A stretch of DNA of 59,937 nt, counting the filler, from Sluysia triapertura (Eukaryota), in the NCBI GenBank assembly GCA_046118255.1. It is 4 parts of 4 records of this genome, joined end to end, with 100 filler letters (N's around TTAATTAATTAA, not from the genome) between each part and the next. Parts side by side here need not be neighbours in the genome. Positions count along the whole stretch, not along the records: positions 25,388 to 38,021 come from JBJNIA010093232.1; 3 more parts are not named here. The stretch is one strand, 5' to 3'. Positions 31,651-36,200 of this stretch are shown one piece after another. Every line of letters begins with the position of its first letter. Position 1 is the stretch's first letter. Made by a program: the position numbers and the translations under genes. The notes beneath the pieces were generated by a model. That model did no database searches and was not told the DNA's origin. It saw only the letters and a program-made list of their open reading frames with translations.

Positions 31651-31949
31651 CAGATACATATATACATAAATATATACAAATTCATACAAACGAAAAAATA
31701 AGAAAGGTTGATGGTAAGGATAAAAGGAATAATAATGATAACAATAACGTAATTATTATATATTTTAATATAATGATGTTGATGATGTGATGTTAATATA
31801 AAAGTTATTATACGCAATTATTATAAGAATTATTATAACAAATAGATTTAAAATAATGATTATAATTCATGATAATTATGTGTGGTGACCAACCCAATAT
31901 TTTAAAGTTTTATTTCAACTTCTAGTTAATTCTTGTTTAGCTTCTTTGG

Positions 31950-33039
31950 ACATAATACTAGGTAAAGATTGAGAAAATAAACTGGATCTGTTGTCATTTT
32001 TATGAATATAAGGAATTATCTTTCAATTTATCTGTTACTGGACAGCATTCTTACATATTAACAATTAATTTTAAAAGTTGCAATGATGGCTTCAACAACT
32101 AAGTATGTTGTTCTGGCTAACATTAAAGCTAACTCGAATTTCCCATTCTGTGTGAATAATCTTGAATTGTAATCTTGAAGTATGAACTAAAGCAAATATT
32201 TGATTATTGTCTAACAACACATATATTGGATGGCGATAACGACAAATGTAATTGCAATTATTGTCTAAACTCAAAGTTTGCATGAGTATTGATGGTGAAT
32301 GGGACCATTTCAAGGTACCATCATTCAATACACTAACATTTTTATCTATAAATTCAACAGGTTCATCGATTTTAATGCCAAGAAATTCTGACATTTGCCA
32401 TCATTGAATAAAAATTGGTTACTTGATGTTAAAAAGTAAACGAAAAAATATTCAGTTTGTGTTCCAATAAAAACAAAGTCGTGAAAGTATTTAATACATT
32501 TAGGTGCACCAGTAATTCGAAACTCAACATGAAATTCGTTTTTTATTTTATCTTTATACCAATGAAAAATAATTAATTTTACTTTCGAGGAAATACGAAT
32601 TCGCACTAATTGTTTTTGATTAGCTTTACTATCGTTAATCGTTGATTGTGGTAGTACATTGTTATTTAGTTGGTGATAATTTGTTTCTGAATGAGATTTC
32701 TCATCAGATGTATTACAAGATAATTTTCGGATATCGTAACAAAATTTAGAAATAATTCTGAAATCACTTATTCTATATATACATATTTGGTTTTCACTAA
32801 GAACAAGAAACAATTCATAATCTATAAGTGACATTTGAAGAATGGGTTTCTTATAAAAATCTTTTAGCATAAAACAAAAAACTGAAACAACTTTCTTCTC
32901 ATAATACTAATTACATTACATGAAATAGGATACACTAATATTGATCTATGTTTAGGTCAAACAAATATGCAGCAATACATTCGGAACTATATGACGTCTC
33001 CACTCGTGTATCAGATAAATTTCTCAAGCAGTTTATCAT
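31950..33039 (-). pseudogene. Vps39/Vam6 (or TGFBRAP1)-like CNH-domain N-terminal fragment
   Basis: ECIAAY, KDFYKKPILQMSLIDYELFLVLSENQICIY, KLIIFHW, FIGTQTEYF, TLKWSHSP and HPIYV follow the CNH domain pattern; frameshifts and stops. Confidence 0.75.
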
Positions 33040-33176
33040 TTTAAATTTTAACTGTTGATCGGAAAACAAAGTTGTTAAAACAATTATTTAACTTTGTTCA
33101 TACAATTATAAAATACGTTAGTTCTATATTAAAATTTTTACAAAATACTGTCTGTAACAATTCCAAAAATAGCCCA

Positions 33177-33289
33177 CCAATGAAAACTATTCGACAACAC
33201 AGCTATGATGTGAACTGTGCAACCATGATTGGTTGTTCAACCAGACACTAAGACAAAATAGCAATGTTAATTCTGGTTGGACAACCAAT
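33177..33289. promoter_or_regulatory. Paired inverted CCAAT promoter module inside the element
   Basis: CCAAT 33177, GATTGGTTGTTCAACCAG 33227, CTGGTTGGACAACCAAT 33273-33289; 140-250 bp upstream of the cargo ATG. Confidence 0.55.
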
Positions 33290-36200
33290 GGAAGCACAGA
33301 ATTAGTAATTACGATAACCAGGTGTCAGTGGTTGACAGTAAGTACTATTGATATTACTTTGTTTAATTAACTGCAACCGCTGGCACTTACTAGAATATGT
33401 TTAATGTAAAATTAATGACTACAGCAACAAAAAATGACGATAATAGTACTAATAAAAGTGGTCCTAATAATAATGATAATAACAATAATAAAAATCAATT
33501 GTTAAAATAAAAAAGGCATAAATCTTTTATATTCAACATAATCTTTCTGTTATTTCTTTTGTTTCTTAACATATTTAAAATCTTGATAACTTTAAGTAAG
33601 GTTGTTTTTCTGTGATGTTAGGGATTGAATGTTTGAAGAAGGTAATACGTAACTAGAGATGTTACAGAAGTGGTAATTTGATTGCAATGTCTCAAATAAT
33701 TTCAAAGTATTAATTTAATGTCTTCAATGGTACTAGAGGTTGAGTGTTAATTATTGTAAACTTGAATTGTTTTGAATTAAATTTTAAGGCGTAAATTTGA
33801 TTATTTAAGATGCTGTTAGACAATGCGTAAGATGTCAATTGAGATGTTTAGAATATGATTGTGATTTAGATATAATTATAGTTTGGATTTTGACATACTG
33901 TATATTAAAATGTTTAGAATAAAATTTAATGTATATTAATGGTTTTAAAATGAGACTAGTTTTAATGGATCTATAAAAATAAAATATGGTAAGGTTTAGA
34001 TGTCGGAATAGTTAATATGGTTTTATGTGAAATGTATTGTATTGAGTTTTCAGTATTTTGGATTAACGTTTTAAGTAAATATTTAATGATTTTCGTATTG
34101 AATGCAAATTTGATGTATTGTAATTTTGTGTTTGGGGTATTGAGTTGTGAAATGTTTTTAATAGTGATTTTGTTATGTGTTATTGTAATAAAATTTTAAA
34201 TTATTGAGTTGGTCACCACATTATGTACAATGCTATGTTAGTTTTTTGAATGAGTCTATTTAATGTTCTGTGTATGTAAGAGATGTTTTTATGTGATGAA
34301 GTGTTGAAATTTTGACGTGATTTCCCTACAATTGACTTTAAGATAAAAATAAAATAAAATAAAAATAGAAATAAACTAAAACTAAGTTATCTCAGTGATT
34401 AAAATTTAATAAATTCAATTCTAATGTAATTTTTTATTAATTTAATGTAAAAATTATTTATTGTTGTTACCAAATTTGGTAAAGATTTTAACGCTTAACT
34501 ATCTTTATTTACTTGATTTTAGTTTATAAAGTTAAGAAAATCTATCACTCGAAAACCTGTATATATAACAAAATTATACACTTTAACTCGTCTCTTGATT
34601 GCCGGAGAAAAAGTTCTAAATTTAATGCGAGTTTTAATTCAAAACCCTAATAAGAACTCAATAAGAATACAATTATTTATATAACTTTAAAACCAAATAA
34701 AAATAAAATATTTAATATTAGTATTTTATTTAATATTTATTTAGTATTTTATTTTATTTAATATTAGTATTTTATTATTATTTAGACTAATACTGAATGT
34801 ACTTGATGTCAGTAACTTTGAAGAATTGTGCTAATTGGCAGTGATTTTGTAATGAAAACAATCAAAAACTTGAAAAGACAACCAAAATTGTGTGCTAATA
34901 TGCAAAATTCTAATATTTTTATACTATTTTTCTCTTGTTCAGATTTATAGCCAATAAATATCCAATTTTCATAAGATCATTTCCATAATTAATCCCCATT
35001 TAAATCTATATTTCATTCTCTAACATATTTAATTCCATAATAACTTATGCACATTGGATTCTATGCAATGGCCAATGCATTGCCAATTAATTTCAGTAAA
35101 TATTATCATTTTTGTGATAATCATACTGTAATTATTTATTTATACTCACCTTGCTAGTTAGATTTTTCAAATTTTATTTGTCTACATGCGATCTGTAATA
35201 TTTTCTAAATGCTAATTAAGTGTTACGGATTCCTACCTTCATTCTTCACATTTACCTATTGGTTTATAACTTCAGTTTTGTTATTTATGCGTTTTTGTGC
35301 GCTTTGTGGTGATGAGGAAGACTTTTTAACTGTATAGTTTTTTTCAATTACAACATAAATATTCGTGGATATTTTGGTATTATAAAGAGAAATATTAATA
35401 TTTACATATTTACAGATTTATTACGATATTATATTGTAAATTTTATATTTTATATTTACATATTGTTCAATGCCTATTAAATTAGATCCGAAATAACTAG
35501 ATATTGATGTGTTAGCAATAATATTAATTGTATTATTTTATTTGTAATTATACATAAACTCAAGTGTATTGTTCTATTGATAACTTCAGTATTAATTATA
35601 GCTTTAATGATGAAACAGAATATTTGAGTTGGACCCAAAAAGGAAAATATATTCAAATTATATTTAACAGACCACGCTTGAAGCATTTTCTAAATTCATT
35701 TAAAATCAAAAAAAATGTCTGCGAGAAATTAACGAATATTAAGTAAATATATTAGAAATGTAAGTAAACAATTATTTAAAAATAAAATATAAAAAAAGAC
35801 TTAGTTGTGGAATATGTTAATGAGATGATTCAGAACCCCAATATATCATTTTTGATATGAAATTATTGACATCGACCATGCGAATTATTTCTATGCAATT
35901 TTATTAGATATTTGTAAAAATTAAAATAACTGTTTTATGTCAATAAATTTAAAAGTATTCCTTGTATTTTTTCAAGGGCACCGAAAGTTATGATCCTGTA
36001 ATGCTTTTTTTCTAGAAATTTTAACGGCTTTAAGTCGAATTGTAAGGATAATTTGTTTTATAAAAACCTTGAGTCGATATTTTCATTTTATATGCACCTT
36101 AAGCGCCAATTTTGATGATGTAAATAAGCCCTATATAAATCTTCTTATATTTCACGAAACTTTAAATTTATAAATTTCAATTAATCAGCTTATTAAAGTT

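Follow-up and report, generated by a model that had tools for sequence, protein, structure and literature searches.

A non-autonomous TGT-ended element carrying part of a Vps39 coding sequence in Sluysia triapertura

An inverted-repeat element flanked by a target-site duplication

We analysed 59,937 nt of the genome of Sluysia triapertura (GCA_046118255.1), referred to below as the window, in which four parts are joined with fillers between them and positions 25,388-38,021 come from JBJNIA010093232.1. Within that part lies a 2,340-bp unit with TGT…ACA ends (31881-34220) that carries a piece of Vps39 coding sequence and is confirmed as a real element. Its terminal inverted repeats (far repeat, 31881-31918, plus strand; near repeat, 34183-34220, minus strand) are 38 nt each and 89% complementary by comparison of the arms, with 31 of the first 34 nt matching, and a 5-bp duplication of TTATG flanks the unit (left copy 31876-31880, right copy 34221-34225). 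Inside the near repeat lie, in order, a G-poor sub-terminal arm (33600-34182, minus strand), an AT-rich spacer with short AAT repeats (33340-33600), a palindromic module (33215-33300) with two facing CCAAT boxes at 33228-33232 and 33285-33289, and the Vps39 cargo, which runs on the minus strand almost to the far repeat. The far repeat has no sub-terminal arm.

A scan of the window found six TGT…ACA pairs with at least 27 of 34 matches, and a 4-6-bp duplication occurs only at 31881-34220. As 30 locally shuffled windows gave zero or one such pair each and none with a duplication, the ends and duplication of the unit are far beyond chance. The arm is strongly skewed, with 4.8% G versus 20.1% C on the element strand over ~620 bp (34220-33600). 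Six translations of the unit contain no transposase-sized frame and no recognisable frame besides the Vps39-like coding sequence. These results bear out the anatomy proposed in a first-pass annotation of this DNA, namely a 2,340-bp unit with 34-bp inverted repeats matching at 31 of 34 positions, a perfect TTATG duplication, a strand-skewed arm of about 620 bp, an AT spacer, paired CCAAT boxes and no transposase. The label ‘Ginger’ that it attached to the unit derives from the end signatures, since no transposase was found in the window.

Both ends of the unit start with TGTGG, as does a second terminus of the same family, with an arm, at 17646-18300 on the plus strand (alignment score 123, against 43 for the best of 30 shuffles). 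Its arm at 17646-17931 is 68% identical to that of the element, and its partner end was not found. A composite unit spanning 17646-34220 was rejected, as its ends match at 31 of 34 positions without a duplication. G-poor stretches at 4500-5300, at 58330-59030 and in the repeat that surrounds the element (described below) show no likeness to the element arm above that of shuffles. Separately, a 190-bp unit with perfect 20-bp TGT…ACA inverted ends lies at 13497-13686, without a 4-6-bp duplication.

Empty sites and a host repeat

A public sequencing run, here run X1, contains the element stretch and was compared with it as contigs. No RNA data set was listed as containing it, a negative that carries no information on expression. 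Four flank pieces of 262-462 nt show no differences from run X1, at a depth of 14-21, indicating that the run comes from the same organism. At the far terminus, 53 contigs carry loose ends that diverge before 31881 (median 255 nt) with a consensus agreement of only 0.42, so the flanks of this terminus differ; the consensus of these loose ends is merely AT-rich. Five contigs join 31881 straight to 34233-34236, skipping 2,351-2,354 bp, and in three of the five joint rows listed for 31881/31883 the sequence continues with the bases just beyond the second TTATG. Unoccupied related sites therefore hold TTATG once.

These empty-site contigs belong to a highly abundant repeat, into a related copy of which the element inserted. 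The flanking bins have depths of 40527 and 15851 in run X1. The insertion described here may itself be absent from run X1, as at several sites all of the depth departs from the window copy, but the contigs drop rare variants. Part of the spacer (33458-33500) was skipped as a repeat in the mapping. From flank depth, the joints and a loose-end consensus at 34304, the interrupted host repeat, a far more abundant G-poor arm on the minus strand, extends over 31570-34330 (the left limit is approximate). It is G-poor on the same strand as the element and appears to terminate in TGTAGGG at 34330. The element sits ~105 bp inside this TGTAGGG end, so that one TGT-ended family is nested in another.

The Vps39 cargo

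A search of 1.84 billion representative proteins returned a single match to the cargo, a leech CNH protein (E 1.1e-5) whose relatives are named Vps39. We compared the cargo with an 878-position Vps39 profile made from 25 of the 26 relatives of the leech protein, with one fused protein excluded; all 25 members come from a Vps39 search, and the paralogue TGFBRAP1 lies outside this comparison. The strongest piece is an open frame at 32379-32870 (minus strand), which covers the CNH domain at profile positions 59-203 (iE 1.5e-10 over six frames); the Pfam CNH match to the same piece (E 0.012) does not pass the cut-off. A middle piece follows in another frame on the same strand at 32185-32385 (profile about 211-301; 9.1 bits, reached by 0 of 100 shuffles), with the frameshift placed near 32367-32400, and a last piece at 31929-32153 (minus strand; profile 313-388) contains three stop codons (16.9 bits, again 0 of 100 shuffles). 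Ahead of the open frame, 32871-33039 on the minus strand is a probable, weakly matched decayed Vps39 start with an ATG at 33039. Its two short ordered motif matches are equalled by 6 of 100 shuffles, and the first 58 Vps39 residues are merely hinted at. The cargo thus comprises ~390 of 878 codons and reaches profile position 388 at 31929, ~10 bp from the far repeat. The frameshifted Vps39-like CNH N-terminus described in the first-pass annotation is present as a coding stretch, but the cargo is longer than this, extending to position 388 of 878.

The cargo is colinear with the profile, occupying 1,108 nt versus 1,161 expected, and its largest excess is 57 nt and open, leaving no intron-sized gap over ~390 codons. 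For comparison, three exons were mapped in a resident carrier gene of the window; the longest measures ~420 nt, and the introns span 4.3 and 4.6 kb. No poly(A) occurs at the 3' junction of the cargo, where such a tract had been named as a sign that the Vps39-like piece inserted later. A word-indexed protein search with the CNH piece returned 0 of 247 candidates, a PDB search gave no matches and Pfam gave nothing for the read-through frames. Three Rfam matches are all far below the gathering score. An Atlas match to a Vps41-type propeller at 0.94 has low recognition value and is a lead only.

Relatives of the cargo

Cargo bins in run X1 have summed depths of 243-2987, versus 14-21 for single-copy pieces, where summed contig depth is not the same as copy number, and up to 38 contigs have in common one difference from the window cargo. 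Relatives of the cargo probably number tens of copies. The longest listed pieces differ from the window copy at ~10-15% of letters. At the three stop codons of the last piece, a sense codon is read in 94%, 77% and 89% of run X1 depth, and at the frameshift (32397-32409) extra letters in 16 contigs, on manual reading, restore the conserved Vps39 motif GKSQEP in frame. The tested breaks are therefore largely private to the window copy. This fits amplification from an open master copy and is not evidence of selection. The earlier interpretation is thus supported in part, as regards a non-autonomous, many-copy element with inverted ends and a host gene piece.

The paired CCAAT module

The palindromic module (33215-33300) is a predicted promoter 189 bp ahead of the ATG, with a summed depth of 1060-1853 in run X1. 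Between module and ATG the depth falls to 32-65, and loose ends occur at 33255 (14 contigs), 33297 and 33314; the drop and the loose ends indicate that different sequences adjoin the module in other copies. Three unrelated frames in the window are likewise preceded by paired CCAAT boxes (8476-8575, 23517-23594 and 59445-59490), which makes doubtful the initial proposal that the module is the captured Vps39 promoter. The predicted promoter is more likely element-borne than captured from the host.

The three other units are described here in their own right. At 7686-8575 (minus strand), a CCAAT palindrome like that of the element precedes a 185-codon frame with 36-bp tandem repeats. At 21819-23600 (minus strand), paired CCAAT boxes are followed by a degraded DEAD-box helicase fragment (top PDB match DDX47, E 6e-10) and by a frame for an Unkempt-like CCCH finger (Pfam E 0.03), for which Atlas gave nothing above 0.89; neither an arm nor an end was found in this interval. 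At 58370-59937 (plus strand), a G-poor arm (3.5% G) and an AT spacer lead to a facing CCAAT pair (59445-59490) and a frame that runs off the window end. This unit adjoins the start of the resident carrier gene.

Comparison with known systems

Gene capture by transposons is already known, from animal Pack-TIRs and plant GingerRoot elements, and the novelty first claimed for host-gene capture was overstated, as both the Drosophila Ssk-FB4 case (PMC8277862) and GingerRoot (PMC6839031) precede it. Animal Pack-TIRs are, like the unit described here, non-autonomous inverted-end elements with host gene sequence, and some of them re-transposed into several copies (PMC8277862), as the unit probably did. 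The unit shares with them inverted ends with a target-site duplication and an interior of host sequence (Vps39 profile 59-388). Ssk-FB4, present at three loci, bears a gene along with 5' upstream DNA (Tan et al. 2021, PMC8277862). In that survey 323 of 370 animal Pack-TIRs belong to hAT or Tc1/mariner, and the word ‘Ginger’ is absent from its 12 supplementary files (PMC8277862). Multicopy cases there are few, with 3-4 copies, whereas the element probably has tens of relatives; the survey also filtered out intronless captures, while the element combines TGT ends and a 5-bp duplication with an intronless cargo (PMC8277862).

Among integrase-related systems, Ginger2/TDD elements are alike in their TGTNR ends, inverted repeats and AT-rich targets (PMC2836005), and TGTNR ends are common to Ginger and Gypsy (PMC2836005, PMC10045372). 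Duplications of 5 bp are reported for TDD-4 and TDD-5 of Dictyostelium (PMC2836005). For animal Ginger2 the same source gives 4-bp duplications, a preference for RTATAY and repeats of ~45-180 bp, and for Ginger2/TDD as a whole repeats of ~50-180 bp, with 45-297 in its table; a Ginger2 miniature element prefers 4-bp TATA (PMC3845634). Unlike in our element, host-gene cargo is not mentioned in the available description of Ginger2/TDD (PMC2836005). In how it works, the element may resemble a Ginger2/TDD derivative, judging from its end signatures. Ginger1 makes a 4-bp duplication of CCGG or CCGT (PMC2836005), which TTATG does not match, and GingerRoot/IS3EU elements have 6-bp duplications and mostly TA..TA ends (PMC6839031, PMC10045372), in contrast to the 5 bp and TGT..ACA seen here. 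GingerRoot is nevertheless similar in that its enzyme is integrase-related and gene fragments occur in 22 of 77 clubmoss elements, usually with the transposase lost, but clubmoss captures retain introns (PMC6839031) and the cargo described here is intron-free. Polinton/Maverick elements, with AG ends and a 6-bp duplication (PMC6839031), do not match.

A further parallel is offered by retrocopies mediated by long terminal repeat (LTR) elements, which are intronless, 3'-truncated pieces of host coding sequence without poly(A) inside element sequence (Tan et al. 2016, PMC5131818). Such retrocopies lie between stretches of LTR retrotransposon (PMC5131818), whereas the element ends in inverted repeats and contains nothing recognisable as a retroelement. 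Pack-MULEs have been reported in a myxozoan (bioRxiv 10.64898/2026.02.11.705288), and planarian Burro elements hold many accessory domains (PMC6431247). We found no report of gene capture by Ginger1 or Ginger2 in animals in the literature within reach, which excludes subscription papers, Repbase and bioRxiv supplements.

Origin of the element

So, what is this element? On balance we favour, with reasonable but far from full confidence, a non-autonomous inverted-end element with an intron-free 5' piece of Vps39 and a predicted promoter of its own, likely moved by an integrase-type (Ginger2/TDD-like) transposase supplied in trans. A longer member of the family would have taken up Vps39 coding sequence once, just behind the arm and the CCAAT palindrome, probably from a spliced RNA. 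The resulting master copy would then have multiplied at a time when its frame remained mostly open. The window copy may have lost everything between about codon 390 and its last 38 bp, either before or after insertion, and would have decayed since. From its end signatures, we infer that the element moves as DNA through an integrase-type enzyme acting in trans.

Several observations weigh against this scenario. Neither a transposase nor an autonomous partner was seen in the window, nor was the parent Vps39 gene found, and no genome-wide search was made for either. Capture from spliced RNA is favoured by a colinear cargo without an intron-sized gap, but not proven, given the missing parent gene. 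Only one duplication was read, that of the 31881-34220 copy, and the short side of the empty-site joints measures just 21-25 letters. At this one site the 5-bp duplication is TDD-like and unlike that of animal Ginger2, and TTATG differs from the RTATAY of animal Ginger2; the 38-bp repeats are shorter than the Ginger2/TDD range (PMC2836005). With two features unmatched and the enzyme unseen, the element is not assignable to Ginger2/TDD. Cargo and terminus each have many relatives, but the contigs are too short to link the two. Moreover, run X1 depth falls to 94 at 31895-31943, and the three long pieces listed for the far end all break off at 31912 or 31936, and in two of them more than 100 unaligned letters follow. 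Since related cargo contigs do not end at the far junction, the 31881-34220 unit is probably a shortened derivative of a longer relative. As for the promoter, the 8476-8575 module shares the inner design of the element's module but resembles it only weakly in sequence (E 0.5). Ordinary planarian tissue promoters are themselves enriched in CCAAT boxes (PMC10558129), so that capture of a host promoter retains some probability.

The main rival, which we regard as unlikely, is a solo LTR of BEL, Copia or Gypsy type with unusually long inverted ends, in which arm and CCAAT module would form the U3 and Vps39 would have been acquired by template switching on an mRNA. LTR anatomy agrees with the order of arm, CCAAT module and transcribed part in the element. 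LTR elements typically have TG…CA ends and 3-6-bp duplications (PMC10045372), an intron-free cargo without 3' poly(A) recalls LTR-mediated retrocopies (PMC5131818), and giant Gypsy elements of planarians bear many accessory domains (PMC6431247). The ends themselves argue otherwise, being 38-bp inverted repeats that appear interchangeable: the terminus at 17646 pairs the far-end repeat with arm sequence, and so do contigs in which 31918/31919 is joined to 34093/34141 on the other strand. No dominant common flank, such as a primer-binding site, emerges from the 53 loose ends at 31881, related cargo contigs extend past the 31881-end junction, and the window holds no direct repeat of the unit. LTR retrotransposon features (direct repeats around gag-pol, a primer-binding site, a polypurine tract) were not found at 31881-34220, a result still compatible with a solo LTR; of these, direct repeats around gag-pol had been named beforehand as grounds for abandoning the transposon interpretation.

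Less probable still is that a Pack-type element copied genomic Vps39 along with its real promoter, the first 390 codons of the parent lying in one exon. The spacing of the probable ATG, 189 bp behind the CCAAT pair, agrees with this, module and cargo depths are of similar order, Ssk-FB4 shows that an animal element can take up a gene along with its 5' upstream sequence (PMC8277862) and GingerRoot captures at the DNA level (PMC6839031). Such an exon would far exceed the longest mapped resident one (~420 nt), however, and both the low depth and loose ends between module and ATG and the paired boxes before the unrelated frames (8476-8575, 23517-23594, 59445-59490) speak against this reading. We give even less credence to a cut-and-paste element that has this anatomy but depends on a DDE transposase other than an integrase relative, the TGT end being coincidental. 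A superfamily cannot be assigned on end signatures alone, no enzyme was seen and FB4, annotated as Tc1/mariner, was reassigned to MULE (PMC8277862), but among the groups covered by two surveys the enzymes behind TGT ends and 4-5-bp duplications are integrase-like (PMC2836005, PMC10045372), and a second TGT-ended arm surrounds the element. Finally, the two ends could be separate decayed insertions whose TTATG matches by chance. A lone, partnerless terminus does exist at 17646, and a given 5-mer matches by chance at ~3 in 1,000, but related empty sites join both flanks directly across the skipped 2,351-2,354 bp, and this explanation is largely refuted.

A broader version of the integrase-moved scenario, which we consider possible and rather speculative, is that of portable expression cassettes: a large integrase-moved family that captures spliced host coding sequence behind its own CCAAT promoter, amplifies open frames to tens of copies and swaps cargo between families, with the window copy fixing the ends. 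If so, RNA-level capture would be joined to DNA-level transposition.

Gene capture by DNA transposons in animals has so far been mostly single-copy and confined largely to hAT and Tc1/mariner. If the favoured scenario holds, a TGT-ended family amplifying an intron-free gene piece behind its own promoter would extend this picture by an integrase-type carrier and, possibly, by a route through RNA. If instead an ordinary enzyme and a single capture turn out to be involved, the element is one more Pack-TIR. In either case the window copy supplies both ends, and hence a defined 38-bp end and a duplication length for a search for the mobilising enzyme. An exact search with the element end found no match in either metagenome or viral contigs.

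Other features of the window

The window also contains intron-containing resident genes at 28439-28819 (minus strand), 38070-45114 (plus strand) and 48275-58079 (minus strand), which encode a TOG-domain protein, a Sec7/BIG-type exchange factor and a mitochondrial ornithine carrier. The best matches of the carrier gene show 62-68% identity, and the best named ones are from flatworms, which lends weak support to a flatworm as the probable host. A fold-back element of ~1.25 kb at 16106-17365 has long, ~77% complementary arms and matching GGGTGTGACA-like ends, and a partial second copy with 71% identity lies at 53368-54255. A short tRNA-like repeat is present in at least five copies (12234-12324, 15345-15482, 19754-19883, 46663-47067 and 51863-52007), and another dispersed repeat occurs in three copies that are 69-74% alike (6873-7195, 18678-18891 and 24959-25287).

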